Assembly (NCBI GenBank): GCA_024704765.1
Contig: JAKMXF010000066.1
Location: forward strand, 314,499-378,498
Direction of reading: 5' to 3'
Source: Oopsacas minuta
Lineage: Eukaryota > Animalia > Porifera
DNA length: 64,000 nucleotides
Shown: piece by piece, positions 8,193 through 64,000 of the stretch
How the letters are laid out: each line of letters opens with the position of its first letter
Position numbering within the stretch: position 1 is the first letter of the stretch
Program-made: the position numbers and the translations under genes
The notes under the pieces: model-generated
What the model was told of the DNA's origin: nothing
The model's input: the letters and a program-made list of their open reading frames with translations, nothing else
Database searches by the model: none

Positions 8193-9329
8193 TATAAAAT
8201 TTAAAAACAAATCTCAAATTAGCTAATAAAATAATCAATGAGTTGAAAATAAGAAAATAATAAATTAGAAATATAAAATACGTATATTATTGAATCAAGT
8301 GTATTTAGATGGGGAAATTAGGAAGTAAGCAATTCCTTGAATGAAATCTACTACGGCAATCAGTCATTAGGCCTTGTATTGACTAGAAGTAAAGTTTGCG
8401 AGGTGGCATAGTTATTAATTTGGAGGAAATATTTGTGACAGTAAATTAAGGCCCAAATAAGTATGGGAATGAGAGAGTTCACGGAAATGAACACAAGCAT
8501 ACATACAAATATCAATTGTAATAGAATATTAAGGAAATTATGATGGGGGTAGAATATGGTATCTTCTATTGTATTACTGAAATATACGATGGACATAATA
8601 AATGCAAAATATGGAGGTATTAAGAACTTTTCATTCAACACTCCTTTTATCGCTTCAAAAAACCAGAACTACAACTAGCATGTAGAAAATATCTTGGCAA
8701 CACCCAAGAACATTGCTGACGCTAATCTAAGGGAAATTTCTAAACAAAACTTATAATTGTGTCACAAAATGCAATAATCTTAGATGCATACTCCAAAGCC
8801 TGAGCATGCACATTCGACTTTGACTTGTGAGCATATTTGCATATACACTCGACTTTGTGCTGTGAGCATGCACACTTGACTTCTTTTATATGAATTATTA
8901 TACGATTAGTAAAGATGGGAATGAAGATGTGGACAAGGTTTTAGTGAAAACTATAGTATTTATCTGACATTTATCATCTGTGGGTGAACAACCAGAGTTG
9001 CCGTGGGAATGGGAAATGATTTTCTTACGATGAGGATGGGTTCGGTTTTCCCAAGTGGGGAAAAAGGAATTCCACGCGATACCGATATGGAAATTCTCAT
9101 GTGAGATACCAATGGGAATTCGAAATCAATGCCATCAAAGTTATTGAAACTATGGATTTTACAAAAAACTATAGTCTAATGAGTCCAGCATTTGAAGACA
9201 GGGTGTATGTATATGTATTTCTTGATATATCAACTGAACTAACTTTGAATTTATAGATAGAGATAATTCAAATTTGTTTACTCTTTGTCAGCACTGGTAT
9301 TATATACAATGAAACCTGCTTAATGCACA

Positions 9330-20060: not shown

Positions 20061-23000
20061 ATGGCGAACAAAAAAATTAATGCTATTGCGTCGCTGCAGA
20101 ATGGAAGTTTGGATAAAGAACTTTGTCGATTAGACGCCAACCAAGCTAGTAAAATTCTCAACCAAAACTCACCGAATCATTTCGGTAGAACGGTACTACA
20201 TTTGGCATGTGAACACGGCCAATACGAAGCAGTTAAATGTTGTCTAGAATTCGGAGCAAGGCCGAATAATACATCTACCTCAGCTGATCTACGAAAAAGT
20301 CCTTTACATGTGTTAATACAAAAACTACCTCCAAATACTGTCGAAATAACCAAGTTGCTTCTGGCTTATCGAGCTGATCCTAAAATAGTAGATTCATCAA
20401 AGAATACTCCGCTTGACTATGCTCATCAAAAGAATCATAAACAACTCATTCAATTGCTTTCAAAGGCTACATCTATTTATCAGTCAGCCTCTGGTATAGC
20501 TACTAGAGAAGCGCCGGTAATTCACAAAGAAATAGAAAATAAAGTTGAAGGATCGAACGAGAAAATTATGGAATTGTTATCAAAATGTTATTTAAAGACT
20601 CTCTCAACTTTCGATTACAATAACTGGTCGCTGATTAATCGTGCTATCGTAAATTCTAACTTCAAATTAGCTGAATCCCTTGTCGAACATACTCTTGAAA
20701 TCCCATCCACTAAAAACCCATCAAATTTCTCTCCACTCCATCTACTAACAATTTTCAAGTGCACAACTCTATTTAAAAATATAATAACAAAGTTTCCTAG
20801 GCTACTTCTGAGTAGAGATAATGACAAGAATACTCCATTACATTTGGCTTGTCGTAACGGCGTTTTTGAGTTAGTTTGCCTCATGCTGCCTGACAACAGA
20901 CCACTACAGTACGTAGATGTAAATGCCACAAACATGCGAGGCACGACTCCATTACACTACGCAGCGAGAGAGGGACATATATGTATAACAGAGTATCTAT
21001 TGCAGTGTACGAAAACTAATTGTATTGACAGTACAAAACAAACATTCTTATTGAAGGCTATTCTGTCAGAACGAATAGACCTGATTCACACGTTACTATC
21101 AAATCATTCACATGTAGTCGGTCAGCTCATTAATTACCAGGACAATGAGGGTAGGACCTTTCTACAACATATAGTCTCTAAAGGTCTTCACAACATAGTC
21201 AGGCAAATTCTCAAGCTAAACCCATCAGTAACTACTGTTGGTTTACTGACACTACAAGGTTATAAGAAATACAAATCGACGTACGCAGAATTTGAATTCT
21301 CATTAGATGAAGAGATAGATGGTATCGATGAGTCTTTGCCGCCAATCATGCCAAACGACTCAGTACAAATTTCTCAATTAAGACGCACTCCTAGTAATCC
21401 TTTGAAAAGTAGCAATAATTTGAATTCACTGGACACTAGTATTGATTTCTACCCTAGTTCGCAGAGAAACAGTTTTAACACGAGCACTAGTGGTAGTTAC
21501 CCAAAATGCGGAAGTAGTTTGGAATCAAAAAATTCTGATAATGTGTCTGCTAATGTTAACGTGGGTAAACAATCCTATCCAACTGATATACCTCAAGAAC
21601 ATTCCCGTAACGTGTCTAAATTCCAAAAGTCTTCTAATTTCATCCTCAACAAATCTACTAATGTAACGGTGCTTATAGAATCACTGTTGTTGGATGATTT
21701 AAGTAGCTTCCAACTAATAATCGATTATATCCTTGAAAAGAATATTCCTATATCAGCATTGCCAGATTTCCAAAGTGCGGTGTGTTTAGCAATTCGTATA
21801 AAGAAATGGAGAGCAGTTGAAATTCTTCTAAAACTAACTTACAATGAGAAAATAGAGTATGAAGTAATTTGGAACAGGCTATACCTCACAAACGAAGCTC
21901 TGAACGAAGTAATCCAAGATATTACATCATTCAAATTTCTCACTAGTACAGACATGGTATTTCAAAACCTGATGGTATTAGATATACACAATAATGAATT
22001 GACTGAGATTCCGAGTTTCATAGTTCAAATGAAAGAGCTTAGAAGACTATCTCTTGTTAATAACAAAATAGAAAATATTTCTCACGAAATATTTTCAATG
22101 AAAGAATTGAGAGAACTTAACTTATCAGGAAATTCGGTAAAATTTATACATCATCTAGCGAATGAACCTCTAATCAGTTTATTAAAATCAAAACTTGATA
22201 AATTAGAATTAGAAAACTGCGGACTTGAACAATTCCCACCAGTTATAGAAGAACTCTACAAGCTACATGATTTGAATTTATCGCAAAATAATATTAATTC
22301 AATTCCGTGTTACATTTGGAAACATAAAGGAATACGAAGACTGAATTTATCCCGTAACAAACTGACCCACCTTACTACTAAGTTGCTACGACCTAATGCT
22401 ATAGTACGGAGTAGCAATAATATAGTAGGAGAAGTAAGGATGAGAGCACCGAGAAGATTCTCTACATATTACGATAAGAGGGGAAGTAGAGAGAGATTTC
22501 AAACACTCCCAATCACCTCAGATTCTATACCAGTTAGAAGTGTGCAGAGAGCTTCATTTGAACACAGTATCATACCTGGACTACAGTTTAATGTACAGCT
22601 AAATAATGACCTATCTGAGCTGAATTTATCTTACAATGAATTTGCTTATTTCCCAACAGACATGAGTGGACTTACTCCCACACTTAAGAAACTTAATATG
22701 TCTTACAACAAGATACAAACTATCTACTTAAGTCTGATTCCTTACACGCTGATCGAGTTGAATCTGGATGGGAATTTGATTGATACATTTTCTTGCGACG
22801 ATCCATACTCTAGATCAAAAGGCATTGCTGAGGGAACATCTACATTATGTAGTGAAGAACATGACGCACTTAACTGGTTAAAGAATCTATCCATTAATGA
22901 CAATAAACTGAAGGAATTCCCACTGTTAGTGCACTACAGCGAAAATGAAGGTTGTAGCAATATCATCAGGCAACATAATATGGAAAAAAGGTTAAGATTC

Positions 23001-26000
23001 CCAGTTCTAGAAGTTTTGAGTATTGTAAATAACGTAATAACATTGTTGACACCTGAAATTCAATACCAGGCTTCTATACAAGAAATATATCTAGACGGAA
23101 ATGCAGAATTAGCCAAATTACCATACGAAATTGGATATCTAAAATGCTTCAATAGACTACAAATTATTTCAGTTGAGAATTGTCCAAAAATTGGCAACAT
23201 TCCACCACACATCTACAATCATGGAAATATCAATACACCACTGTTAATGCCTTATTTCAGAGCACAACTGAAAGGGAGTGTCCAGAATAACTTAGTCAAG
23301 TTGATGGTTATTGGTTCTTTCAACCAAGGAAAAACTAGTTTATTGAGGAGATTGAAAGGATTGGGTTTGACAGAGCGTAACCCAACCAAAGGAGTGGAGA
23401 TAGATTCTTGGAAATGCGATTTCGGGAGGGCGAAATCAATAACATTTGTGACATGGGATTTTGCAGGTCAAGAAGAGTATTATGCTACGCATCAATGCTT
23501 CCTTAGCACAGGTGCCCTGTATATACTTTGTTTCTCATTGGAAACATTCACTGAAGATGCAAAGAGCATGCAAACAATGACAGAATGGCTGCAGTCCATT
23601 GAACTACGTGCTCCCCGTTCACCTGTGATAATCGTAGGCACACATTTGGATAAAGTGAGTGAAAATGTTGCCCTAGTCATTAAGGAAACTTTACAAGAGA
23701 AATTCGTAACTGAAGGAGCAAGCAGAATAGAACAACTCCCTCATGTAATTGATGTTATGCTAGTGTGTTGTATTCCTGAAAAAAGTTTTTTCTCCAAATT
23801 GAACAAGAAAATGGATCAATTGAAAGATAGAATATTAGATGTAGTAGGACATCTCTCTATGCACTACAATCGTATACGACAGACTATATCTTATTTATAC
23901 AAACGTGATGCAGATTCTAAATCACCGACTCTACTTTTGAATCAACAAACTCCAAAAGATTATGAAAATCTTCGTGAAAAATTGTTCAAGGTGAGTTCTA
24001 CACTTCTTGTAGAGGCAAAACCGCCAATACTTAAAGATTCAGAATTGAAAAGTCACGCTGAACACATAATAGATAATCCTGACGATCTATTCGATGCAGT
24101 CGAGCATCTACACATGCAAGGAAGTATCTTACACTTCAATACTCCCCTATTAAAAGATGTTTACTTCTTAGATCCAAATTGGCTATGCAAACAAATGGCT
24201 AGAGTTATAGGTGCTCACACAGACACTAACAATTCCAATGGACTCGTTTCGTTAGTTGATTTGGAAAGTAGTTTAAAAGATATTTCACAATTCTGGAATA
24301 AGTTTGTGAGATTGTTAGAGCAATTCCAGATTATGTTAAGGTTCTCAGAGGAAGAAGTACTCATTCCCTCACAATTACCAGTCGAACCGATTAATCTTGT
24401 TGGTTTATACAAGATTTTCACTGAAAACTTATACCCTGATCATAAAGACAAATATTTCGTACGTATCTGGCCGCTGGTAAATGTACCACATGGGTTCTGG
24501 CCCAGGCTTTTATGTCGTGTAGCTCAAGATCCAGTGATAATGTCATTAGTCAGCAAGAAATCTCATGCCACAATATCTATTATGGGCTCGCTGAAGGAAA
24601 GAAAGGAAGAAATAAAACGAAAACGAATTATCTCTGATGCGAATTTACCAACATTTGATTCAGATATAAACTGGAATTTTTGGAGAAGTGGCGTTCAGCT
24701 TGTTGATAAGCATGGAGAAATTCAGTTTGAAATTATAGAACTGTCACAAGATAATCCTGAAATAGTGGAAGAGGATAATACACCAGATTGTTATATAGAT
24801 CAGCATAGATTTTATATAGAGAAGAAATTTAGAGTTCTTTCAGTTGTTCATGTACAAAACGATGAACTCGCTACTGATTGTCAAATTTTCGTACGAATAA
24901 CACAACACATAAATTCCTTATTCGAAGCTTGGTTTCCAGGTATCCTTACTGACTATCAAGTCCCTAGTTACTATCCTTGCCCTCGTTGCTTCTATCAAGA
25001 CACAAAACAATCTGTACCGCATATACAAGATCAAGGATACAGCGGGACGTTCATTAAATTCGGGCAAACAATTTGGAGTACTTTCACAGAAGAACACTGC
25101 TTCAGGAGATCTGGAGAGAATTCCCCTGTAAAATGTCATTGGCATGGAAATATAGACATAAGCAGAATAGCTCCTGATGTCAAGCTATTGGATGTAGGAC
25201 CAGATCGTGTATTAGATATGAACACAATCCGTCTAGGCTCACAATTGGGGGCTGGCACTTATGGAGTTGTGTACAAGGGTGAAATATGGGATCACTATGA
25301 TAATGACTCGATACCTTGTGCTATAAAGCTATTCGTAGGCAACACTTTCGGGAGAAGTTATGACCATATCCTTGAGCATATGTCAGAAGAAGATCAATGG
25401 AATTCATATATAGAATTAAGGAAAGAGCTCTCACCCATGGTTAACCTAACACATCCTAATCTATCTCTACTCTTGGGTGTAACAATGTCACCTCTGCAGA
25501 TTGTAATGGGGCTAGCACGAAAAGGTTCCTTACTTACAATGATTAACAAATACAGTGAGAAGAAAGCTATTTTCCATCCAAAGATAGCAGCTAGCTCTAT
25601 TTTACAGATAGCTTCCGGACTGAACTATCTGCATTCTAACAATCTAGTACATCTTGACTTGAAAGCAGCTAATATATTAGTCTGGGATTTTCCAGAGCCA
25701 GATGAACAAACAGCTGACTCAAAAGTACTTCTGAAACTTGCAGACTACGGCACAGTGTTACACTGCGATACATTGGGGGTACGTATGTCGAATTTGGTAG
25801 GAACTCCTGGTTATATTGCCCCAGAAGTTGTGCTGTTCTCTGGGAAGCAGAGCTTCACATCTAAGGCAGATGTTTTCTCATTCGCAATGGTGTTGTATGA
25901 GATTTTAAGCTACAGACCTCCTTTTGTTAATTTCGATAGCGAGCATGATCAGAAATGGGCGCCAGCACAAGGACGTAGACCCCTTTTACGCGCGGAAGAA

Positions 26001-27701
26001 AAATACAGTCCTTGTTTGTTCCAAGACCTCATGACTGCTTGTTGGACAGCTGATCCTGACGACCGTCCTACCATGGAGGAATGTGAAAATATAGCCAGTA
26101 ATCCTCTATTTAGCGAAATTCGTAGTATAATGTCCTTTGAGAAAATGGTTAGATTCGCTTCCCATGCTGTTATCACCAACACCCTGAGTGAGACACGAAT
26201 TCCTGGGGATTCTATGGATTTACAGCCGTTAGGCATGGAAGGAGGACTCACCGATTCCATGAAGAGGTATGGTAGTATGTCAATGGAGCCGAGAAAGCCA
26301 AGAATCAAATCTGACATAATTGACTTTGGAAACTTACTCACAGGGGAGAATACACAGATTTGGCTAGGTGCATTTAATGATCCGTATAGGAATAAAGTTG
26401 CAATAGTACAGTATCTGCATGGGCAATTAGGAAGTCGTGTATGGTTTGTAGATGTTTTACCATCAGGGGGAGATGCCTACATAACAGTGCTTACTTCAGT
26501 TAACAAGCAAGTATGGCTAGGTACTAATGAGGGAAAGATAATTGTGATTGATGGAACTTGCTTTAAGAAACTACCAGTTGAATATTCTAATTTAAATACA
26601 AATGAAATACACGCAATTAAGCACGTTGAAATAATGAAGAAAGTGTTTATATCATTTCGCAGTAATGACGTTGCAATTCTAGAAGATAAATTGGAAGTGG
26701 AACTATCAGGAAACTACAAATTTATTATAACAGTTTTCATTACAACAGATAATCCTATATTCACATTCCACCCTGTACAGAGGCATACTAACAGCTGGGA
26801 AGTATGGGGAACTAAGGATGGGTGTACCATAGAAGTTTTCCCGCAGTTACCCAATGGTAAACTCGGTCAGAACTTTAGCAAGTCATTATCAGTAGATCCT
26901 ACTGTTAAGTATCAGCGATTTCATTGCATCGCTTCCTGTTTTCAGGAGGATATACCCGAACAGAAAATAGATGGATATGCAGTAGTATGGATATCTGAAT
27001 GGCAGAGAGCTACAGCTTATGTAATGGGGGTTTTGAGTAGGTCATTGAGAGCTGGTGTGCCAATACCTAAGGATTTGAATAATCCTGATGCGATTAAAGA
27101 GGTAAGATAATACAGTCCAACAGAACTCCTGTTATATCGAATACGGATACATTATAGAAATACCCGCTTATATCCAAGTCTGAAATTGCACAATTATAGT
27201 ATCGAAGTAACATAAATTACACCGGTTAATCAAAACCTGCTTATTTCGAAGTAATTATCGCGGTCACTTGAGCTTGAGTTTTGATTTGTTAATATATTCG
27301 TACTAATTAGTGTGGAACAAATTGTTGCTTATATAGAATGAGCAAAGCCAAATGAATCTCTTTCGAATATGTACAATGTTATCCATGGTTTATTGTTGTG
27401 TATCTGTGTTTAGATTTCTTCTATGTATAATAAAGGCAGGACAATCTACTTGGGAGTGAGTGATGGACACGTGTATAAATTTGATATGGTATCAAGACAA
27501 TTGCTAAATTCCTATGCAATTCATCAAACTAAAGTCAGGAAAATAATTCCATTACCTGCACTAGCGAATGGTAGTGTTTGTGCTGAGAAATGCTGTGAAG
27601 ATCAGCAAATAGTTATAACAGTAGGTAACGGGTTCTATCAACACATTCCTTCTGTAAAGAAAAGCAGAGATTTGTGTCTTGTTGCATTCAGTTTGTCTTA
27701 A
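20061..27701 (+). CDS. Lrrk: LRRK-type ROCO kinase: ANK repeats, LRR, Roc GTPase, COR, Ser/Thr kinase (catalytic loop HLD, DYG), C-terminal WD40-like; join(20061..27101,27414..27701)
   Basis: The first exon is a 7041-bp continuous ORF from a true ATG at 20061. Roc motifs are VIGSFNQGKTSLL (P-loop), WDFAGQEEY (switch II) and GTHLDK. Kinase motifs are VHLDLKAANILV, KLADYGT and GTPGYIAPEV. A GTAAGA donor sits immediately after ...AIKE (exon ends 27101), and a ctgtgtttag acceptor at 27412-13 restores the frame into ISSMYNKGRTIYLGVSDGHVYKFD... up to the stop at 27699-27701. The 312-bp intron contains a MITE. Confidence 0.85.
27111..27280. mobile_element. MITE family A copy inside the single LRRK intron
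   Basis: acagtccaacagaactcctgttatatcgaatacggata ... cgcggtcacttgagcttgagtt. Confidence 0.55.
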
Positions 27702-52100: not shown

Positions 52101-55100
52101 GGCGTCAAAAAGTAATTAAATACTCCTAGAGTATAAATAACGTGTAGAACACTGGTTATGTTTGTATTTGTAGATACATATCCATATAGTTAGTATTTGG
52201 ATATTGTAGAATTGTGTTACATTTTTGAAATAAAATATTTCAATTTGATCTATTAAACTAGACTACTAGTCGAATTGTTTTGACTAAAAATGGTCCTCTA
52301 TATGCGAATTAGATGTTATAAACCATGGATGGTAGATTTCGTGGTTTTAAGTTATATAGAAATTCCTCCCTAATCTCGCATCAAAAATCCTTGACAACAT
52401 CCAAGCATGTATAGTAACTAATCCGGGAAAATACCCAAACCAAAAACAGAGGAGTGCCTTATACAATAGAACAACATTCAAGCAGATATACGAAATCCAC
52501 CATCCATGGTTAATAACCATGTAGAGGAGGAAACAATTTTTGTCATATTATATAACAAATAATAAAATCATATGTATTGTACCATGGATATAACTGATAT
52601 CTGAATACTACATTTATTACTGACTAGAGAAAATATTCAAAAGTTACCAAGCGCAATCCATGAGAACTCATAAAACCTAAAATATATTAACTGTGGATAA
52701 GTGTGTAAACCAATTTCTTAATTCAACTTTAAATGAACGTCAAAAGATGCGAAAATATGATTAATCCTATGATAATTATAAATATTTGTAAATGTAGTGC
52801 TGGAAAAGATACATATGGACAAGTTGTAAATTCCTGGTTTTCTGCTACTGTAAGTGACAAAGTGAATAATAAATAATTTCAAAAAGTTTTCCATCAATTT
52901 TATAGAAAATGTCAATCACAATTACTCCAAACATAAGAACATGGGGAAGACAATGTATAGATGAACCGGCAATTACAAAGGACACGAACTCATAATTATA
53001 TATTACCATAGAAATATACGATGGCATAATTAATCCCATTTCTCGTTATAATATCTATAATTAGATGATATATTACTTAATCTGATATAAATAGAGATGC
53101 TAAGTATACATACAATACGATACACGTGTTGCTCTGCTTTATGGAAATGGAAACTAATATGATTAAAGGTAACTTGGCAGATTAACGTGAGTATTAATAG
53201 AATAACACCTTACTAGATTAAACATATATGAAGCGGCACAATATCTGAAGAGATGGCTGTGTGCACCGTGCACGAGTATATATATATAAGAAAAGAATGG
53301 AGATTGACATAAAGGCAAAAGTCAGAGATGGGAATAATGAACAGTAAGTTCAGTCGAATATCACCTGAAACAGTGGAGAAAGGAGATATCGTAGTAAACA
53401 AGGTTAAATATCCTCGTCAATACGCAGTGTATATCGGAGAAGGGAAAGTTATTGAGTATATACACAAAGGCAATAGTGTGGGAGAGATTATAACAAATAA
53501 CTTGAAGAGTTTCCACAAGAACGGAGTATTAAGAATTCGTGGAATTAGAATATTTAGACTTGAATACCCAGAGAGAGTAGACAGAGCTTACAATCTATTA
53601 ATCAATCCAACTCAGGAATGGAACATGTATAATCATAGGTTTATGAACAGTGAAACATTTGTACGATATTGTACTACAGGGATGTTGAATGATAGAACAA
53701 TACCTATGAGGAGGAGAATAGTTTGGAGTATAGCAGATAAGATTAATAATAGTATTAATGGGAGAGCGAGGAAAAGAATGGAGATTTGATTGTTTGACAA
53801 TAATTATGTATTCTGTAATGTAAAAAAATAATTTAATATGTAAATAAGTATACATGTGGGCAATTCTATTTTACTGATATAGGAACGTTCTTTCGTGTAT
53901 AAATTTGTTTTCATAGGAATGGGGACAACAACAATGCGTAAATACCAAGGGTCTAGTTTTAACAGGATTAGTTTTATGGAAATACTAAAGTCAAATACTT
54001 GACAATTGTCAAGTTATAGAGCATTATAGTATCTTTATTAGCCCTGCTGGTAAGTTGTAATTGAGTAGACAACTCTGATACCAAGGATGTTGTAAATCTA
54101 TCAATCGTAATGAAATCAAGACGGAATGTTTCTATTAACTATCCCTGGTCTATCTGTTACAACTTAAGCGATAAGAACACACACATATGGCACAAGGTGA
54201 GCGGTCCTACCGTCCTGGATCTCAAATATATTATATTATATTATACTATTCGGAATAGGGCAGTATTAAAAAGTCACTTACATATCGTTTCAAAACGACA
54301 AATAAAATATCTCAATACGTGGGTATTATATCCAAAGCTACCTGATTCCAATAACATTATGTTTTGTTGACCTAACCTGCTTGTGACCAAACGTGGTATT
54401 AACCAAATACGACATAGAATAATCAATGGAAAGAGACAGTGCATACTCAAATCTACTCACCGAGAAGAAGAAGGAGGAGGTACAAAGATTTTCAGATAAA
54501 TAAATCTGATATATACGTAACAATATTCCAAATTTAATAAAACAGGTCAATTGATACAATAGCTTACTTGGGTTGGCCCCATGTTCATAAGACTGAGCTC
54601 CTCCTGTCGTGTAAGGTCTGGATGCAGTATTACTCCCGTAGTAAGGGGAACTAACAGCTGTAGTAGTGGTTATGGTTGTGTCTCCATACGAGTAGCTGCT
54701 ATAGCTACCAGTCCCTGGTCGCTAAATTACAATACAAGTACACTGTTGTATAAACTGTATATACTACCTGAATATTTGAACATTGTCACATAAATGGATT
54801 ACGATCGTTCTGTATAATGAAGATATCAAAAATGACTTGATTTACTCCAGAAACAATGGAATTTGTAAATGCCTAACCAAAAGATGCGCTAATGACGTCA
54901 GATTACCACACATATATGCTACATACATACGAGTTACGTTGACAATACATAACATAGAATGAAGCAATATGTAAGATACCTGTGTAGCATATGAATCAGT
55001 GGTAGGCTGATATTGAGGAACTGAAGTAGGAGCAGTGGTAGAACGAGCAGTAGACTGAGTGTAGTTATAGTACTGATAAGGATCAGAAGTGTAGCTAGAG

Positions 55101-55971
55101 ATAGAATAGGATAATTGATAAACAAATTGGTAAAGACGTTTGATAATCTCACTTGTAAGTTGAATATGTAGCAGCTTGAGTAGGGTCAGTAGCTGGAGCT
55201 ACACTAGTAGAGGCAGCAGACACAGCAGCAACACCGCTAGCACTGGTAGAGTAACTACTGTATGGATTCTGATACTGAGGATAGCTATAGGATAGGATAA
55301 ATAAGTTTCAATTGACCTACAACATGCAAGTAAGAAGTAATAATCAGGTATATACCTAGAATAAGCAGCAGCAGTGCTCCCTGTAGACACAGAGGGAGTA
55401 GTTGTGGCTGTAGACTGACCAGTGAGAGAGTAGTTAACTCCGTACAGAGCCTGTGCTGCAGCCGCAGTAGAACTATCGTATAGAGCTAATGGAATAAATG
55501 TTGAAGTAAAGTGAGAGTATTTTATCATATGGCATGGAAATTTTAGAGACCATATATAACTACAGCATAATCTCCATAAACAGGGAAAATGCTATCTAGG
55601 GTCCTCGTTGCTGCCAAATTCCCCCTTCGCGGAGGTACATGTTCATTTGTATGGGCTAGGAGTTCGCTCTATTTATTTTTTCCACTCAGTTTCCAGAAAT
55701 TCCGTTTCCACAGGCCCCCGTAAGTGGAAGAATCACTAAAACTCAAAAACTTTGATATAAGAAATGTATGTCAAAATATAATTTTCATAAACGATAAATT
55801 ACTGCATCAAATCGACATGTATTTACCTGTTGGCGCAGGGGTAGCAGTACTGACAGCTAAAGAGGTAGAAGTACCCGTGGCGTCATAAGCAACACTAGCA
55901 ACACCTGGTATAGCGTAGGGGAGAGGTGGAGGCATCAGGTAGGGATAATACGAAGGATAGCTGTTTGTCAT
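40152..55971 (-). CDS. FET-family RNA-binding protein (FUS/EWS/TAF15 homolog; cabeza-like): SYGQ-rich low-complexity N-terminus, RGG, RRM, RGG, RanBP2 zinc finger, RGG, C-terminal PY-NLS; 15 exons, about 687 aa
   Basis: Minus-strand exons: 55971-55827 (ATG), 55485-55356, 55284-55153, 55094-54980, 54721-54568, 49303-49230, 49142-48879, 48820-48730, 48178-48131, 46055-45971, 45909-45821, 45563-45200 (RRM), 42458-42331 (ZnF), 41981-41796 and 40210-40152 (stop). Every junction has a GT donor and AG acceptor, and the codon phases chain without a break. Total coding length is 2064 nt. The N-terminus reads [19 protein letters not shown]... and is SY/G/Q/T-rich. The RRM reads [75 protein letters not shown]. 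The zinc finger reads [26 protein letters not shown]. The C-terminus reads ...[30 protein letters not shown]. Confidence 0.8.
42331..42458 (-). CDS. FET gene exon 13: RGG plus RanBP2-type zinc finger
   Basis: [42 protein letters not shown]; acceptor catttgctttag, donor A|GTAAGT. Confidence 0.8.
45200..45563 (-). CDS. FET gene exon 12: RRM plus RGG
   Basis: See the FET gene entry; acceptor ccattgtttag, donor GGAAG|GTGAGA. Confidence 0.8.
45603..45711. mobile_element. MITE family A copy in FET intron
   Basis: acagtcagctccccttatatcgaagc ... gttactttgactgt. Confidence 0.5.
46174..46350. mobile_element. MITE family A copy with perfect TIRs (acagtcaactccc / gggagttgactgt-like), in FET intron
   Basis: acagtcaactcccccaatatcgaacacggatatagcg ... 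cttcaatataacaggagttgactgta. Confidence 0.65.
46634..47977 (+). CDS. Secreted MACPF-domain (perforin-like) protein with Cys/His-rich C-terminal module; intronless; nested on the opposite strand in a FET intron
   Basis: True ATG at 46634 and signal peptide [24 protein letters not shown] signature [13 protein letters not shown] (consensus [YW]-G-[ST]-H-[FY]-x6-G-G). C-terminal [50 protein letters not shown]. Sits between FET exons 48178-48131 and 46055-45971. Confidence 0.7.
   Translation: MQTILLTIFVSLLVQRGYSDDTPPLGQGYFIPKHNLLGEQLLGGQTLLDMTADCWNCVRDEGTYQKTDVYTNTERFYRSLTSTTSLSPKLETDFTLGATLDITSNGISGGVRNLTGVSLNDYTTSLICFLKSVCLSKNKLNIDFQKDFEALNPSIKEPWLESNWVDYETFYNKYGSHFITEVAYGARFYEHAFSDARMSYTSRNLTVRACAALAGPAGIGILEIEACEGINKQEIDSVSSLAIYTLLVIRGGTAKTRAELYKNRTVAGIAKFMSEANATEMPIKYNFMPIWSLLQLRYLDTEHYSKARNLAAYYLGFGNYGCEYQPVINTSKFKVEYYQRFEYAPTSTDSIPTFQCVIAPQGCHADTDCHKHDIIRCSCHGDSCIRHFPNTLDTSVIKKVARPNYDIKWGAYGCGQHLLKCSCDNMDWGYSTVWQQDKDTDYPTIKS
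50720..51025 (+). CDS. Hypothetical small Lys/Glu-rich protein (101 aa), true ATG; inside large FET intron
   Basis: ORF with an ATG start; no recognisable domain. Confidence 0.25.
   Translation: MERFINKFVLKVSVKKYYQRLPSEDTPNELKKEQIQEMNTENIPTQTESKLTPPSSTKLFTLIKRGKIEREANRGKYTQLEANCNLSKEEMEEIYNNNFTD
51634..52119 (+). CDS. Hypothetical basic protein (first ATG at 51634; the track ORF from 51514 starts on GTG) with [11 protein letters not shown] tract and CKNCGGC motif; inside FET intron
   Basis: ORF only; no recognisable domain. Confidence 0.25.
   Translation: MPQLKPKSKKSKKKSKKTRNGKNKNWYKKLEGPSQFYSEKVFNTNSSSESDSDFEIDWGEERNEVSYELTLKSPTDDSVIVCSVPAKPTGKKYMKELIHCKNCGGCSLELGWEIQTEEGKFYVIDYHLIFTMEELLAIILTERIQKYARTRNVKKKASKSN
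53281..53292 (+). promoter_or_regulatory. TATA-like element (tatatatataag) about 40 bp upstream of the LRAT-like gene ATG
   Basis: Sequence motif only. Confidence 0.3.
53328..53789 (+). CDS. LRAT/H-rev107-like paralog, N-myristoylation motif MGIMNS, predicted catalytically dead (conserved His and Cys both replaced); nested in FET intron
   Basis: ATG at 53328. Aligns with the 1361-1810 protein: [19 protein letters not shown] versus GDILYRYLGG..LYHYGVYLG (His to Gln), and [12 protein letters not shown] versus NCEHFTSYCATG (Cys to Ser, His to Thr). Confidence 0.55.
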   Translation: MGIMNSKFSRISPETVEKGDIVVNKVKYPRQYAVYIGEGKVIEYIHKGNSVGEIITNNLKSFHKNGVLRIRGIRIFRLEYPERVDRAYNLLINPTQEWNMYNHRFMNSETFVRYCTTGMLNDRTIPMRRRIVWSIADKINNSINGRARKRMEI

Positions 55972-56296
55972 CTCTCAATGATGAAATTATATAAGTCACA
56001 ATATGCTAATTATAGAATTAAAATATAGTCAACTACATACGGATTATAATAGCTGAGGTTGCATAACAATACCAATGTTTTCAGTGTAGTCTATTGGCTC
56101 ATAACAACCATGATTAGTGTCAACCTGAGGAGAAAACTACACAATTCACGGAGTATGTAAATTTGTAAATAAATTATATTCTATATATAGTATACAAAGG
56201 TGATAATTATGTATTCAAATATTAAATCGTGAGTAGAATAATTTTACCCATAACTCTTATGGGTAAACCATTTGGTTTACTTACAAGTGTAATGGG

Positions 56297-58574
56297 TAAA
56301 ATTATCGCACAGTGCGGAGAAGATTACTTGGATAAAGACGAATAATCTCAATCCAGTGAATTCACAATTCTTATAAGAGCCAGTCACACAGTCAGGACTC
56401 TATGAATATACAGTAGTGCTTTGAATTGATATTGTTACCTTATAGCTTAGTATCATAGTCAGTCTACCCGGGCACTGATTAGTACAAACTAGACAAATTG
56501 CTACAAATTTTGCATACATACATTTGGAGCCTAGATTGCCTTAGAGTAGCCAATTCAATACCTACGTCTCCTTCGATACGATTGCTCAAGTTGAACTGAT
56601 CAATTCTTATTATACAACTAACTGGTGTAAATCCAAACGAGTGATTTAATTCTGTTAGTTTATTAAATGACTGATTATTGAATGTCAGCTTCTGATATGA
56701 AAAGGAGTGACATGTGATCTGTTCAGTGTTATTTCAATGAAATCGAAGCCATTTTCAAATTGTTTCTACTGGGGTACTAACTAGTACTCATTGGACGAAT
56801 TGCTACATTTTGCATCCTGCGATAATATGGTTGCCAAACAGCTCAATTCCTTTTATCCAACTTCAACAACTAATCTGTATGGACATGACTTTAGTGAGTT
56901 TAGATTCCTTGAATTTTATAGTTTATACGTAATTTATTTGAATGTTTTAATCCCAAATTGGATAATTAACTTTAATAATCACACATCTGAATTATCAAAT
57001 AGCCATTAGAATGGCATCAAACATACCATCCAATGAGATAGAACAGTTCGATGATATCTCTAAACAAATCCAAGAGAAATTCGACCTTCTCATCCGTCGA
57101 TTGATCGTAAGGAGAGATGGTCTCTTAGACAGACTATTACAACTCAAGGAGGATTATATCAACAAAGAAACAACTCGAATTTCATCCATAAAAGATCTAG
57201 AAAGAATACGAAAAGAAATAGAAGAAATGAGGAGTAGAGTAAATACCAATAATCAGATCCATGAACAAGCTGCTCAGTTATACGATAAGGGTCTTGAGGA
57301 TCTCAGAGTACCAACAAATCTACAAATCCCTGTATTCCATTATCCATCATTACAACAAATCAAATCACTAATTGATCAATTCGGGGAGATAGAGTTGGAG
57401 GTACCAAACCAGACTGAAAAGGAACCTAAGGTAACACCTCAAGCAAATCTGTGCTGGAAGAAGTCATTTCCATCATTAGTGGGGGGAAACAGCTGGAAGA
57501 TGGGGAATTCCCTTTCCGACTACGATACCCAGATGGAGAGCTGCATAAATGATGTTCCCAGGTGAATATAAATATGATGTATAATAATCCCTAATTGAAT
57601 TTTATTTTAGTGGTAACATAGAAATATTCATCAAAACTCTGACTGGTAAGATAATCACTCTTTATGTTAAGCCTACTGACACTATTGAAGTATTACGTGC
57701 TAACATCCGAGACAAGGAAGGGATCCCTTCCAACCAGCGGCTCATATTTGCTGGGGAACAGCTAAAAGATGAGAGAACCCTATCCGACTACAATATCAAG
57801 AACGGGAGTACACTCCATTTGCATGTAGTATTCCGGCTTAAGAATGGCATACAAATATTCATCAATACTCTGACTGGTAAGACAATAACTCTTTATGTTA
57901 AGCCTAGTGACACCATTGAAAACGTATGTTATCAAATTCAGGACAGGGAAGGGATCCCTCCCGACCAGCAACGCCTCATATTTAGAGGGAAACAGCTGGA
58001 AGATTGGAGAACACTATCCGACTACAATATCAATAACGGGAGTACACTCCATTTAGTACTCCGGCCTAAGAATGCCATGGAAATATTCATCAAAACTCTG
58101 ACTGGTAGGACTATCACCCTTGATGTTGGGCTTAGTGACACCATTGAAAACGTGCGTTATAAGATTCAGGACAAGGAAGGGATCCCTCCCGACCAGCAAC
58201 GCCTCATATTTGAAGGGAAACAGCTGGAAGATTGGAGAACACTATCCGACTACAATATCAATAACGGGAGTACACTCCATTTAGTACTCCGGCCTAAGAA
58301 TGCCATGGAAATATTCATCAAAACTCTGACTGGTAGGACTATCACCCTTGATGTTGGGCTTAGTGACACCATTGAAAACGTGCGTTATAAGATTCAGGAC
58401 AAGGAAGGGATCCCTCCCGACCAGCAACGCCTCATATTTGAAGGGAAACAGCTGGAAGATTGGAGAACACTATCCTACTACAATATCAATAACGGGAGTA
58501 CACTCCATTTAGAACTCCGGCTTAAGAATGGAGAAATAATTAGAAGATGGATGAACACTATTCTACCTAAATAG
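56297..58574. repeat. Segmental tandem duplication, copy 1 (upstream region plus fusion gene A)
   Basis: 56297-56660 is near-identical to 59150-59510, and 56905-58574 is homologous to 59910-61344. Confidence 0.75.
57011..58574 (+). CDS. Fusion gene A: TRIM-like coiled-coil N-terminal exon plus four tandem ubiquitin-like domains lacking the C-terminal Gly-Gly; join(57011..57561,57611..58574)
   Basis: Exon 1 runs from the ATG at 57011 to ...CINDVP, then CAG|GTGAAT donor (GT at 57562-63). The 49-bp intron ends ttttag (57609-10). Exon 2 restores the frame (AG+T=Ser) into [26 protein letters not shown]... The four 76-80-aa repeats are 70-80% identical to ubiquitin ([76 protein letters not shown] versus [76 protein letters not shown]). 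Their ends are RPKNA, RLKNG and FRLKNG, not LRGG. Confidence 0.75.
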
Positions 58575-58606
58575 GTAATACGAAGGATAGCTGTTAGTCA
58601 TCCCCC
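58575..58606 (-). pseudogene. Remnant copy of FET exon 1 start (ATGACTAACAGCTATCCTTCGTATTACC) abutting the stop codon of fusion gene A, marking the tandem-duplication junction
   Basis: 58575-58720 is about 85% identical to 55940-56090 (the FET 5' end and first-intron donor region), then diverges. Confidence 0.6.
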
Positions 58607-58971
58607 AACACAGATTAGTGTAATTATGCCACAATATGCTAATTATAGGAATGTAATATAGTCGTATACATAGAGATTATAATAGCTGAGGTTTCATAAT
58701 AATACATTGTTTCAGGGGCGGATACGCACAGGTTTAAGAGAATCACGGTGATAAATGAGTAAATGTGTTGGATACCCGTTGGGTGTGTTTCTCCCCTTTG
58801 CTATTCTATTGGACATCAAGTGCCACTATTTGACACCAACCAAATTTGTCTGACCAATAGGCTACTAATATATGTGATTATGACATCTCAGGGCACCGCC
58901 CTCCTCTGTATGTAACTCTGATTGATTATATATCAGCCATAATTGTCATTGGGGTCACAGCTAAAGTAACT

Positions 58972-59095
58972 AACCATTAGAATGGCATCAAAAATGGGAT
59001 AGAACAGTTCGATGATATCTCCTAACAAATCGACGAGAAATTCGACCTTCTCATCTGCCGATTGATCTTAAGGATACATGCTCTCTTAAGCCCGC
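58972..59095 (+). pseudogene. Degenerate fragment of the coiled-coil exon (ATGGCATCAAA..GATAGAACAGTTCGATGATATCTC..) with an internal deletion
   Basis: Aligns to 57004-57125 with a roughly 13-bp deletion and substitutions; no intact ORF. Confidence 0.6.
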
Positions 59096-59687
59096 CATAC
59101 ATACATTTTTCTATCGAGATGTTGATTGGTGCTGCTATAATTATACACACTGTGCGAAGAAGATTACTTGGATAAAGACGAATAATCTCAATTCAGTGAA
59201 TTCACAATTCTTATAAGAGCCAGTCACACAGTCAGGACTTCATGAATATAAAGTAGTGCTTTGGATTGATATTGTTACCTTATAGCTTAGTATCATAGTC
59301 AGTCTACCCGGGCACTGATTAGTACAAACTAGACAAATTGCTACAAATTTTGCATACATACATTTGGAGCCTAGATTGCCTTAGAGTAGCCAATTCAATA
59401 CCTACGTCTCCTTCGATACGATTGCTCAAGTTGAACTGATCAATTCTTATTATACAACTAACTGGTGTAAATCCAAACGAGTGATTTAATTCTGTTAGTT
59501 TATTAATTATAAGAATGTTGTTACAACAAATTTGGATAAAGTAACAAATAATAATATGTATTATACGTAGTTTGTTATTAACTTACAAGAAATCTGATAG
59601 GTCTATAGATCATCTATCGTCTATAACTATGTCTATCATGGGTCACAACTAAAGTAACTAACTAACAGACGAGGGCAATCTCTTTTT

Positions 59688-59856
59688 GGTACTCCAGGTA
59701 CTGACACCATTGAGATATTGAAGCAATATATCCATGATAAAGAAGGGATACCCCCAGACTACCAGTTAATTTCTTTTGCCAGTAAGCAGTTGGAGGATTT
59801 GGCTACCCTCTCCAAATACAAAATCCAGTATAGGAGCACTCTGAACATAGTTTATT
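59688..59856 (+). pseudogene. Degenerate ubiquitin-like fragment ([52 protein letters not shown])
   Basis: Recognisable Ub core (KEGIPPD..KQLED..L..Y.I...STL) but diverged and terminated; lies between the two fusion-gene copies. Confidence 0.55.
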
Positions 59857-60014
59857 AATAATATTTAGGAAACATGACTTCATATCCCTTGGATTATAAA
59901 ACCCTCGTTCTAACTATATTTATAGTTTATACATAAATTATTTGAATGTTTTAATCCCAAATTGGATAATTAACTTTAATAATCACACATCTGAATTATC
60001 AAATAGCCATTAGA

Positions 60015-61344
60015 ATGGCATCAAACATACCATCCAATGAGATAGAACAGTTCGATGATATCTCTAAACAAATCCAAGAGAAATTCGACCTTCTCATCCG
60101 TCGATTGATCGTAAGGAGAGATGGTCTCTTAGACAGACTATTACAACTCAAGGAGGATTATATCAACAAAGAAACAACTCGAATTTCATCCATAAAAGAT
60201 CTAGAAAGAGCACGAAAAGAAATAGAGGAATTGAGGAGTAGAGTAAATACCAATAATCAGATCCATGAACAAGCTGCTCAGTTATACGATAAGGGTCTTG
60301 AGGATCTCAGAGCACCAACAAATCTACAAATCCCTGCATTCCATTATCCATCATTACAACAAATCAAATCACTAATTGATCAATTCGGGGAGATAGAGTT
60401 GGAGGTGCCTAAGATAACACCTCAAGATAAGAGTAAATCTGTGCTGGATAAAGTCATATCCATCAATAGTGATAGGAAACAGCTGGAAGATGAGAGTACT
60501 CTACCTGTCTACGATACCCAGATGAAGAACTGCCTACATGTTGTTCCGAGGTGAATATACATATGATGTATAATAAAATTTGTCTATGGAGTATACATTT
60601 TTATAACTAATTATATTGTATTTCAGGGATAACATAAAAATATTCATCAAAACTCTGACTAGGACTATCACCCTTGATGTTGGGCTTAGTGACACCATTG
60701 AAAACGTGCGTTATAAGATTCAGGACAAGGAAGGGATCCCTCCCGACCAGCAACGCCTCATATTTGAAGGGAAACAGCTGGAAGATTGGAGAACACTATC
60801 CGACTACAATATCAAGACCGAGAGTACACTCCATTTAGTACTCCGGCACCGGGGTACCATGCGAATATTCATCAAACCTATAACTGGTAAGACTATCACT
60901 CTTGAGGTTGAGCCTAGTGACACCATTGCAAACGTGTGTGCTAAGATTCAGGACAAGGAAGGGATCCCTCCCGACCAGCAACGCCTCATATTTAGAGGGA
61001 AACAGCTGGAAGATTGGAGAACACTATCCGACTACAATATCAATAACGGGAGTACACTCCATTTAGTACTCCGGCCTAAGAATGCCATGCAAATATTCAT
61101 CAAACCTATAACTGGTAAGACTATCACTCTTGAGGTTGAGCCTAGTGACACCATTGCAAACGTGTGTGCTAAGATTCAGGTCAGGGAAGGGATCCCTCCC
61201 TACCAGCAACGCCTCATATTAGCAGGGAAACAGCTGGAAGATTGGAGAACACTATCCTGCTACAATATCAAGAAAGATTTTACACTCCATTTAATGGTCC
61301 GCCCTCGCTCAGAGCTAGAATTTGAAGAGAGCAATATGAATTAA
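60015..61344 (+). CDS. Fusion gene B (tandem paralog of A): coiled-coil exon plus three ubiquitin-like domains without Gly-Gly; join(60015..60550,60627..61344)
   Basis: ATG at 60015. The first 130 aa are almost identical to gene A. Donor CCGAG|GTGAAT (GT at 60551-52), acceptor tttcag at 60625-26, and AG+G=Arg restores the frame into [77 protein letters not shown] / [49 protein letters not shown]... Stop at 61342-44. The 95 bp upstream of both ATGs are identical. Confidence 0.7.
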
Positions 61345-62182: not shown

Positions 62183-64000
62183 ATGTCAATGGAAAAGCCG
62201 CGATTCAAAGTAAGAGCTCAACTACCCGACGAGGAATCACCACACACATTCACGATTATGCCATCTGTCGCATTCCCAATGCTACACACCCACTTGAAGG
62301 AAATTTCTGGGCTAAGTCAGATTATTGTGACGTACCAAGATGAAGAAGGTGACGATGTAACTCTGACTAATGAAGAGGAGTTCACAGAGGCTAAGAGGAT
62401 GCTTGACCTCGGGAACATCTTATCACTACGACTTACAGTCACTGCAGGACCAAATGCTACCCCCTATAAGAAGGAAGAGCCTGTTATAACCACAACCTCC
62501 AGGCCACAGCCTACTCCACGATCTGCCGGGAAGACGAAGAAAACCGGATACTATCCCGAGCTGGCGGAGGAGCTGGGAGAGATGCTTCATGTATCTACAC
62601 CAAAGGAATCTGTACCTGTGAACAGAAATACACAAACTACTCCTGACCTCACTAATGTAAGTTTAGTTGATTGGGGCCTTTTCTCATCTGGGTTCTTTAA
62701 TTATCGGAAATTTTGTCATCGAAAAAACATACATTGTAGAAAAGAAATAGACTTTTGGATGTAATTCCTTCTGATTATTTCGTATATATGATTTTTCTCG
62801 TGTAAAGAATTGGCAAAAAACTACTGTAATTCTCATTTATTTATTTTATACATTTTGAAATTCTTTAGAATAAATCTGAATGGACTGACTCTTTTCTCTC
62901 TACTGCTTCTAAAGAAATAACAAATGTTCTAGACTCTCTACTCAAATCAGTAACAGCCGAGCCATCTTCTCTCATGAAGACCAGCTCCAGTAGCATGTGT
63001 CATACGGGCATCCTCTGTAAGCTATGCAACAAAACTATAATCGGGAATCGTTACAAATGTGGGAATTGTGCCGAGTTCGATCTCTGTGAACTATGTCTAC
63101 TGAATCCAGATGCTCACGACCCCACCCACATACTAATGCTTATACGTCTGCCCTGTCCAGGAGCTGGATACATTGACGATGAACCTGTACCAATGCTACG
63201 AGAGAACATATACCAGCCTAACGACAACAATGAGGAAAAGTTATTCAAACAATTCTACGCTGATAAACAGGCTAATAAGAAAGCAAAAAAGGCTTTGAAG
63301 TTAGAAAGGAAAATAAAGAAGATGATACTGCCCCAACATGTAGAGGCTAAGGTAATTTAATATACTATCATAACATTTATTCGAGCTGTCCATACCTACT
63401 CTATATGATCTCAAAATTTGTATTATAGTCTATGGAAAGGGGTCTACTGGTGAACGGTTATGAACTGTTGTTTTATTTATACGTAGAAAACTATACGATA
63501 GTTATTAATATTCATTTATCAAGATTTTATTGTGCAAATTCTACAATGCATATGACGTAATACATTACACGCTTATGACCAATTCGGGAAAAATCCTTAT
63601 ATGATTTATGGCTGCTAGTTGTCTGTATATGCTTAATAAAGAACCTTCTAATAATAATATTTCCATATACGTAGGTTGGAGCCTTACAGTCTGACATCGA
63701 ACTCAGGCGCAAAGAAATTAAAGAATTACGAGGAAAAATACGATCTACTAAGAAGGGCGTGGGTGTATTCTCTGAGGATATAGCATTACAAGAACCTTCT
63801 CAGGATTTCAGTGTTAGAATTCTAAGAGATACAAGCGAGTGTGCAGTCGTTCTTCCTATGAGTAGAGGTAGCTGTAAATGGCTTGTAGAAAACAACGGAG
63901 ATTCATTTTGGACTTCTGTTCGCTTCCATTGTGTGTCAGGAAATTTGTTAACAGATGAGAGACAGATTAGCTTGCCGTTCTGCTCACAGGGTGATCAGAT
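62183..64000 (+). CDS. NBR1/p62(SQSTM1)-like selective-autophagy receptor: PB1 domain, ZZ zinc finger, FW(NBR1-box)-like region; 5' part of gene, continues past window end; join(62183..62656,62869..63351,63675..>64000)
   Basis: ATG at 62183. PB1-like IIVTYQDEEGDDVTLTNEEEFTEAKRM. Donor AAT|GTAAGT at 62657, acceptor ttctttag at 62867-68. ZZ finger CHTGILCKLCNKTIIGNRYKCGNCAEFDLCELC..DAHDPTH. Donor AAG|GTAATT at 63352, acceptor cgtag at 63673-74. Exon 3 (..SCKWLVENNGDSFWTSVRFHCVSGNLL..) carries the W-spaced pattern of the NBR1 FW domain. All junctions are phase 0. Confidence 0.7.

Follow-up and report, generated by a model that had tools for sequence, protein, structure and literature searches.

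A probable remnant of a ubiquitin unit at the fusion junction of two tandem coiled-coil genes in the glass sponge Oopsacas minuta

Two tandem genes join a helical head to ubiquitin-like units

We analysed a 64,000-nucleotide (nt) stretch of the genome of the glass sponge Oopsacas minuta (contig JAKMXF010000066.1, forward-strand positions 314,499 to 378,498; hereafter the window, with positions counted from its first letter), a eukaryotic sequence of ~35% G+C with short introns, and focused on two tandem genes at its 3′ end, here called A and B. Both encode a helical head of ~130 residues, a tail of ~50 residues and a series of ubiquitin-like units, four in A and three in B. Our spliced model of gene A is identical to KAI6659068.1 (LOD99_14744, 504 amino acids (aa)) and that of gene B to KAI6659069.1 (LOD99_14745, 417 aa; P0001), proteins that the NCBI annotation describes merely as hypothetical or 'ubiquitin-like domain-containing'. 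The splice donor is AG/GTGAAT in phase 2 in both genes, and both splices are in frame.

Our subject is the end of exon 1, the tail that separates the helical head from the repeats. A sequence-only reading of the window had proposed that this tail, placed at 57420–57561 in gene A, is itself a decayed ubiquitin fragment, and the strings that it quoted all occur where it put them. We conclude, with a probability of roughly 75%, that exon 1 of both A and B ends in a vestigial partial ubiquitin unit, covering about L43 to R72, that was left behind when a coiled-coil gene was fused to a ubiquitin array.

The end of exon 1 matches the back third of ubiquitin

We compared the tails with the local repeats at the nucleotide level, using dinucleotide shuffles (n = 1,000) as controls. 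In Smith–Waterman alignment against the repeat unit at 58081–58308, the gene A tail (57440–57540) scored 52, compared with 16.5 ± 2.5 (maximum 29) for its shuffles, and the gene B tail (60440–60530) scored 44, compared with 15.7 ± 2.3 (maximum 27); no shuffle reached either score (corresponding z = 12–14). The comparison on which the sequence-only reading had staked its claim thus came out well above shuffled sequence. The aligned core spans 42–45 nt (GGAAACAGCTGGAAGAT...CTAC[G/A]ATA) at 81–84% identity, includes a 17-nt exact run and reads GKQLED..LSDYxI as protein.

Protein-level tests agreed. A ubiquitin profile built from the seven local repeats of A and B gave 14.8 bits for the B tail and 15.9 bits for the A tail after repair of its frame, against a shuffle maximum of 7.5 bits (0/2,000), whereas the A tail as translated received 1.3 bits, a score reached by 41 of 2,000 shuffles. 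When the tails were aligned locally to canonical ubiquitin with BLOSUM62, again none of 2,000 shuffles reached the observed score. A phmmer search of 1.84 billion proteins with B exon 1 returned, besides coiled-coil relatives, two polyubiquitins (P0069 and P0076) that were matched solely through exon-1 residues 133/153–178, with whole-library expectation (E) values of 1.5e-4 and 2.9e-4. In gene B the ubiquitin register holds to the end of the exon (L67, H68, V70, R72), with 13–14 of 29 nt matching in the single expected register and 7.3 ± 2.4 over all registers. The ubiquitin similarity of the tail is real, and by the nucleotide, profile and phmmer tests the ubiquitin-derived sequence is collinear with the intact repeats and lies directly upstream of them, as expected of descent from ubiquitin. 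Chance resemblance, in favour of which one can cite that the Pfam ubiquitin model stays under threshold, is hardly credible given that no nucleotide (0/1,000) or protein (0/2,000) shuffle scored as high, that the match is collinear with the adjoining array and that a whole-library search reached polyubiquitins through the tail.

The demonstrable match covers ubiquitin residues ~43–72, the back third of a unit, and upstream of residue ~43 both nucleotide and protein tests were at chance level. A possible extension to ubiquitin residues 19–42 (P.D...V..K, or QDK with a roughly fitting spacing) was rejected: the B tests were at chance, and the sole low upstream value (A anchored, 19/3,000) comes from LEVP and KEP..T, residues better accounted for by the linker that the coiled-coil family has of its own. 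Within the originally proposed extent, 57472–57561 (residues 43–72) therefore stands, and 57404–57445 belongs to that family linker. At most ~45 residues lie between the family linker and the end of the exon, and the tail does not hold a complete beta-grasp unit (~72–76 residues, with strands 1–2, the helix and strands 3–5). PF00240 found no match in the B tail or in the A tail as read. Because the match is limited to ~43–72 and the Pfam ubiquitin model stays under its cut-off, the tail is, as judged from its sequence, a fragment and not a domain. The idea that a whole repeat had degraded into the linker accordingly goes too far, since just this back part can be detected; a breakpoint or a deletion inside the unit would explain the missing front at least as well as decay.

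Table 1. Features of the two genes and of the interval between them (positions in the window)
Feature	Position	Strand	Evidence
Gene A exon 1	57011..57561	+	Phase-2 donor; translation and splice model equal the NCBI protein
Gene A coiled-coil (helical) N-terminal module, aa 1–131	57011..57403	+	phmmer to coiled-coil–NHL and coiled-coil–C2 proteins, E down to 6e-29
Gene A linker from the coiled-coil family, counterpart of D/EVPDYSLKKEPVVT(AGK)	57404..57445	+	Exon 1 alignments to P0002 and P0006 reach aa 142–145
Gene A junction zone, origin not assignable; holds the 7-nt frame-shifting deletion	57446..57471	+	A/B alignment
Gene A probable ubiquitin remnant, residues ~43–72, core 57484–57528	57472..57561	+	Nucleotide, profile and BLOSUM62 tests
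Gene A intron, 49 nt, GT..AG	57562..57610	+	In-frame splice gives the annotated protein
Gene A exon 2: four ubiquitin-like units (57618–58532; junctions LRPKNA or LRLKNG), short tail, stop codon	57611..58574	+	tblastn with ubiquitin, E 1e-29 to 1e-36
Decayed copy of the exon 1 5′ end (first ~40 codons), between A and B	58968..59088	+	82% identity to 56997–57127; tblastn 75% over 32 aa
Separate 5′-truncated divergent ubiquitin-like fragment, residues ~20–70, upstream of B	59700..59859	+	tblastn E 3.5e-16; PF00240 E 6e-12
Gene B exon 1	60015..60550	+	Spliced model equals P0001
Gene B probable ubiquitin remnant, wholly in ubiquitin frame	60462..60550	+	tblastn to ubiquitin 48–72, 52% identity; profile; phmmer
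Gene B intron, 76 nt, matching the gene A intron in position and phase	60551..60626	+	A/B comparison
Gene B exon 2: three ubiquitin-like units (60634–61311) and C-terminal tail	60627..61344	+	tblastn; PF00240 E 3e-83 (P0001)

The remnant drifts freely and is older than the intact repeats

The gene A tail has lost 7 nt near 57446 and, in compensation, gained 1 nt near 57503–57517; 21 codons (including NSWKMGN) are read out of the ubiquitin frame, and the frame returns from LSDY onward. Gene B has instead lost 21 nt from the coiled-coil-family linker. Between A and B the tails differ by three indels and are 80–87% identical, with omega of 0.8–1.3 and synonymous divergence (dS) of 0.12–0.28, and in a single-sequence AlphaFold2 (AF2) model of gene B the tail is the block of lowest predicted local distance difference test (pLDDT) score, 24–31. 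The frameshift, the indels, the omega values and the low-confidence block bear out the proposal that the tail decays as a linker, and the tail is free to change frame and length. Because 21 codons are read out of frame, the remnant in gene A would act as a sequence-indifferent spacer; and because the −7 shift is offset by the +1 insertion after 21 codons that contain no stop, restoration of the frame suggests selection to keep the repeats translated.

The residues that survive in the remnant point to its age. The A remnant retains canonical G53, Q62 and E64, and the B remnant Q62; all seven intact repeats lack G53 and Q62, and B1 is the only one of them that keeps E64. Since the tails keep G53, Q62 and E64, the remnant cannot be a recent copy of an extant repeat; it is older than the present repeats, having split off before the changes G53W and Q62N/K. 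The A and B remnants also have the derived states N60D, I61T, K63M and T66C in common, and because both carry D60, T61, M63 and C66, decay began before the A/B duplication. The sequence-only reading had overlooked both this greater age and the out-of-frame reading of gene A.

These residues also bear on the alternative that the linker was never a ubiquitin unit and that a tract of ~45–60 nt was copied into it from a downstream repeat, by gene conversion or template switching. Such a patch would account for the 17-nt exact run and for an 81–84% core with flanks at chance level, and conversion appears to be active at the locus, where a tract at 56915–57400 is 98–100% identical between the two genes. 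We nevertheless regard a copied patch as improbable. No extant repeat could be the donor, because none has the G53 seen in the A tail or the Q62 seen in both tails (the E64 of the A tail is a further canonical residue), and the four derived residues shared by A and B place the piece before the duplication. Moreover, the B register continues to LH.V.R at the end of the exon, and conversion itself requires pre-existing homology.

The helical head belongs to a family with several C-terminal partners

An exhaustive phmmer search with exon 1 gave 83 matches, the best outside the species having an E value of 6e-29 and 45% identity, with alignments beginning at residues 2–9; a word-index homology search with exon 1 had returned nothing, and the relatives surfaced in the exhaustive HMMER search. 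The head thus belongs to a family with a helical N-terminal module of ~135 residues that runs from the initiator methionine. In genes A and B the coiled coil begins at residue ~7, and the AF2 model of the gene B paralogue places helices at 7–53, 60–99 and 114–124 with low confidence. Across the family this module, which supplies a start codon and the beginning of a family linker, is the fixed N-terminal part, and the C-terminal partners vary (NHL, C2 and Zn-rich tails); the usual ones are NHL propellers (P0002, P0011, P0024, P0068) or C2 (the Oopsacas 'Tollip-like' P0003 and P0008).

The N-terminal ~135–145 residues of sponge coiled-coil–NHL (CC–NHL) and coiled-coil–C2 (CC–C2) proteins (such as Oopsacas KAI6650872.1 and KAI6650871.1 'Tollip-like'; ENA P0002, P0011 and P0024) are homologous to those of A and B, and these proteins share the linker motif VP.....KEP..T with gene A. 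Homology of gene A to the family reaches residues 142–145 and includes this conserved linker motif (counterpart D/EVPDYSLKKEPVVT). Genes A and B differ in what follows, carrying a ubiquitin-like array in place of NHL or C2: no NHL propeller or C2 domain comes after the linker, and in P0001 Pfam finds solely ubiquitin-family domains. Nor do these proteins have the RING and B-box that precede the coiled coil of TRIM-NHL proteins, for which genes A and B, P0002, P0011 and P0024 gave no Pfam matches. We found no published description of genes A and B, no Pfam model or published description of the coiled-coil family and none of a sponge coiled-coil module that swaps NHL, C2 and ubiquitin-like C-terminal partners; the Oopsacas genome paper does not mention ubiquitin, NHL or tandem genes.

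Because the family part ends near 57445 and recognisable ubiquitin starts near 57472–57479, the junction is confined to ~35 nt (57446–57478). The tail does mark a fusion junction, as had been proposed. Within it, neither ubiquitin nor the first NHL repeat significantly matches the zone at 57446–57471. The nearest coiled-coil relatives being CC–NHL proteins, the tail could alternatively be a remnant of the first NHL repeat of a CC–NHL parent, its ubiquitin likeness amounting to just a few residues, and a MAFFT alignment did set the tails over the first NHL blade (G.A.D....IY.AD..N.RIQV). However, a profile of the linker and first NHL repeat gave the tails only −1.1 to 1.1 bits, reached by 99–627 of 1,000 shuffles, whereas the ubiquitin-repeat profile gave 14.7–16.8 bits (0/1,000 shuffles), which makes this origin very improbable for the tail as a whole; for the 26-nt junction zone at 57446–57471 an NHL origin is possible.

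The repeats form a predicted unprocessable ubiquitin array

Exon 2 resembles the polyubiquitin genes UBB and UBC in consisting of head-to-tail 76-residue units, which are 67–82% identical to ubiquitin by tblastn and 77–80% identical in the comparison with polyubiquitin; K48 and the patch formed by L8, I44, H68 and V70 are mostly kept in the seven units. Unlike polyubiquitin, the units end in LRPKNA, LRLKNG, LRHRGT and VRPRSE instead of the LRLRGG at which deubiquitinases release ubiquitin. Because the domains are without Gly-Gly processing sites, the chain should stay uncleaved, and its units should be neither released nor conjugated. The array further differs from polyubiquitin in its G53W change (6/7 units), its coiled-coil head, its intron within the coding region and its omega of ~1 in place of extreme conservation: between units omega is 0.7–1.8, not the value of a near-identical ubiquitin held by strong purifying selection. 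K63 is replaced in six of the seven units (B3 alone keeps it) and Q62 in all seven. A search for a stand-alone array with the G53W and LRPKNA signature found none, the nearest proteins being ordinary polyubiquitins at ≤79% identity, although Oopsacas paralogues may be missed by it. On these features the array is predicted to be a distinctive, unprocessable ubiquitin variant and not a functional polyubiquitin precursor; the repeats could be an uncleavable mimic of a ubiquitin chain or part of a decaying gene. We found no published description of such a pair of ubiquitin-array proteins without processing sites.

ISG15, FAT10 and the C terminus of OASL each carry two diverged, uncleaved ubiquitin-like domains, and ISG15 and FAT10 have a conjugatable C terminus. 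Genes A and B resemble them in placing uncleaved ubiquitin-like domains head to tail in one polypeptide, a likeness known at the level of the ubiquitin fold only, and differ in that their units, three to four of them, are close to ubiquitin, that the chain has no Gly-Gly end and that a coiled-coil head precedes it.

The relaxed omega raises the alternative that A and B are young, non-functional duplicates in which the linker is one more decaying stretch without a role. Omega of 0.66–1.8 in the coiled coil, tail and repeats fits this, as do the frameshifted stretch in gene A, the wreckage of a further copy between the genes and the lack of close relatives outside the species. On the other side, the two genes, spliced in frame, read through 504 and 417 codons without a stop, both copies have kept the donor, the acceptor and the phase, the compensated shift in gene A suggests selection for translation of the repeats, and the substitution counts behind omega are small. 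We consider non-functional duplicates rather unlikely.

A proposed fusion and the role of its relic

In the fusion that we favour, the 5′ part of a gene of the coiled-coil family (the start codon, a helical module of ~130 aa and ~14 residues from the beginning of the family linker) would have been joined, through an exonic breakpoint, to the interior of a near-canonical ubiquitin unit. The remnant had already decayed before A and B duplicated, and would have been bypassed by the changes (G53W, Q62N/K and E64G) that the intact repeats later came to share. Since then the two copies have drifted independently, with the 21-nt deletion in B and the −7/+1 indel pair in A; last, to judge from the pattern of identity, a recent conversion tract would have re-homogenised the 5′ flank and coiled coil alone, 56915–57400. 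The sequence-only reading had the coiled coil inserted into, or recombined with, a pre-existing array. A fusion agrees with our results; as to its direction, joining of the 5′ part of a coiled-coil gene to the 3′ part of an array is as likely as insertion, and the sequence fits both equally well.

The remnant would now keep an oligomerising helical module and three to four ubiquitin-like domains apart, as a flexible spacer of indifferent sequence. A spacer role alone is proposed because a 30-residue piece without strands 1–2 and the helix cannot form the beta-grasp fold.

Several points weigh against this account. The Pfam ubiquitin model PF00240 gives even the frame-repaired A tail 18.2 bits (E 0.0021), below its gathering threshold of 25.4 bits. 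Identity is uneven, with 81–84% in the core and the remainder near chance, as could also result from a small conversion patch or from selection on KQLED..L.DY. Omega is near 1 across the whole of both genes, which could be dying and not working. With a mean pLDDT of 45.9, the AF2 model is of poor quality as a whole and supports no more than a helical head and a low-confidence tail. The gene A intron falls precisely where the remnant gives way to the first intact ubiquitin-like unit, a position that the fusion leaves unexplained, and coiled-coil-family relatives in other assemblies are intronless; derivation of the intron from repeat sequence was rejected, the gene A intron having no similarity to the repeats. 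Finally, how and in which direction the fusion took place is inferred and not directly observed.

If the fusion took place as proposed, the locus would catch domain shuffling in progress in an early-branching animal, with a breakpoint placed within ~35 nt and a partial domain kept as a linker. The two paralogues represent successive stages of decay, one of them with a compensated frameshift, and the relic is demonstrably older than the concerted changes of the repeats. Nothing established is overturned: vestigial domain fragments are expected at fusion junctions, and the relic is real but an ordinary molecular fossil.

Parallel cases

Prakash and Bateman (2015) reportedly described domain atrophy and partial-domain relics in fusion proteins. 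As in such relics, a domain piece without the length needed for folding survives here as a linker at a domain boundary; the remnant differs in that the parent domain lies in tandem beside the relic and that ongoing decay can be followed in two paralogues, one of which reads part of the relic out of frame.

A closer parallel comes from another eukaryote, on a contig of ENA assembly ERZ25072740 (L001), where two intronless genes that combine a coiled coil with ubiquitin-like units (P0039 and P0044) stand beside a CC–NHL gene. Their architecture is that of A and B, and they differ in being intronless, in having one or two units and in a coiled coil just 26–28% identical to that of A and B. In a neighbour-joining tree of the heads, P0039 and P0044 group with the neighbouring CC–NHL gene (100% bootstrap) and the second main clade contains A and B; both coiled-coil clades are present together in one assembly. 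Because the heads of P0039 and P0044 are sister to their CC–NHL neighbour and not to A and B, the tree suggests two independent fusions of the module to ubiquitin, a pattern that local gene conversion could mimic. Ahead of its intact ubiquitin domain, the P0044 linker holds a weak match to ubiquitin 22–49 (4/2,000 shuffles reach it). P0039 ends at an in-frame TGA (L001 9030–9032), directly followed in the same frame by an intact second ubiquitin-like unit (9018–9257 for the region as a whole); the TGA could be a recent nonsense mutation, a site of stop-codon read-through or an assembly error.

As a speculation that we think quite unlikely to be right in full, the module, specific to sponges on this view, may have captured ubiquitin repeats independently at least twice, in Oopsacas and in the organism behind ERZ25072740, yielding oligomeric, non-cleavable 'linear polyubiquitin mimics' that act, for example, as autophagy or innate-signalling decoys or scaffolds, with the linker relics as footprints of a recurrent, selected fusion. 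Were this so, the mimics would engage ubiquitin-binding proteins, and the relics would not be a one-off accident.

Duplication, gene conversion and neighbouring genes

The 5′ flank and coiled coil of gene A (56915–57400) are 98–100% identical to those of gene B (59919–60404), with dS of 0.025; identity drops sharply at 57400, and downstream it is 80–92%. This sharp boundary at the end of the coiled coil would reflect a recent gene-conversion tract covering the 5′ flank and head alone. Non-coding flanks are duplicated as well, 55946–56080 resembling 58576–58712 (80%) and 56297–56666 resembling 59136–59506 (97%), which gives a tandem unit of ~3 kb. An imperfect palindrome of 68 nt lies at 56238–56305.

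Two further pieces lie between the genes (Table 1), a decayed start of exon 1 and a 5′-truncated ubiquitin-like fragment, which together may be what is left of an older third copy. The fragment keeps Q62, and the motif GGGTCACARCTAAAGTAACTAAC stands ahead of both pieces, at 58950 and 59640.

Directly downstream of gene B, the gene at 62183–64000 (+) resembles, by eye, an NBR1/p62-type autophagy receptor with a possible PB1-like N terminus and a putative ZZ-type zinc finger at 62974–63360. The NBR1/p62 type is a ubiquitin-binding family, here adjoining genes with ubiquitin-like arrays; the adjacency may be coincidence. Farther upstream, 20061–27110 (+) is an uninterrupted open reading frame (ORF) of 2,349 codons with an ankyrin/LRR/Roc-COR/kinase appearance by eye (LRRK/ROCO-like), whose product an exact look-up did not find on record. 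Two more ORFs on the same strand, at 1304–1810 and 53328–53789, look by eye like LRAT/NlpC-P60-type domains, the first of them with an NCEHF motif.

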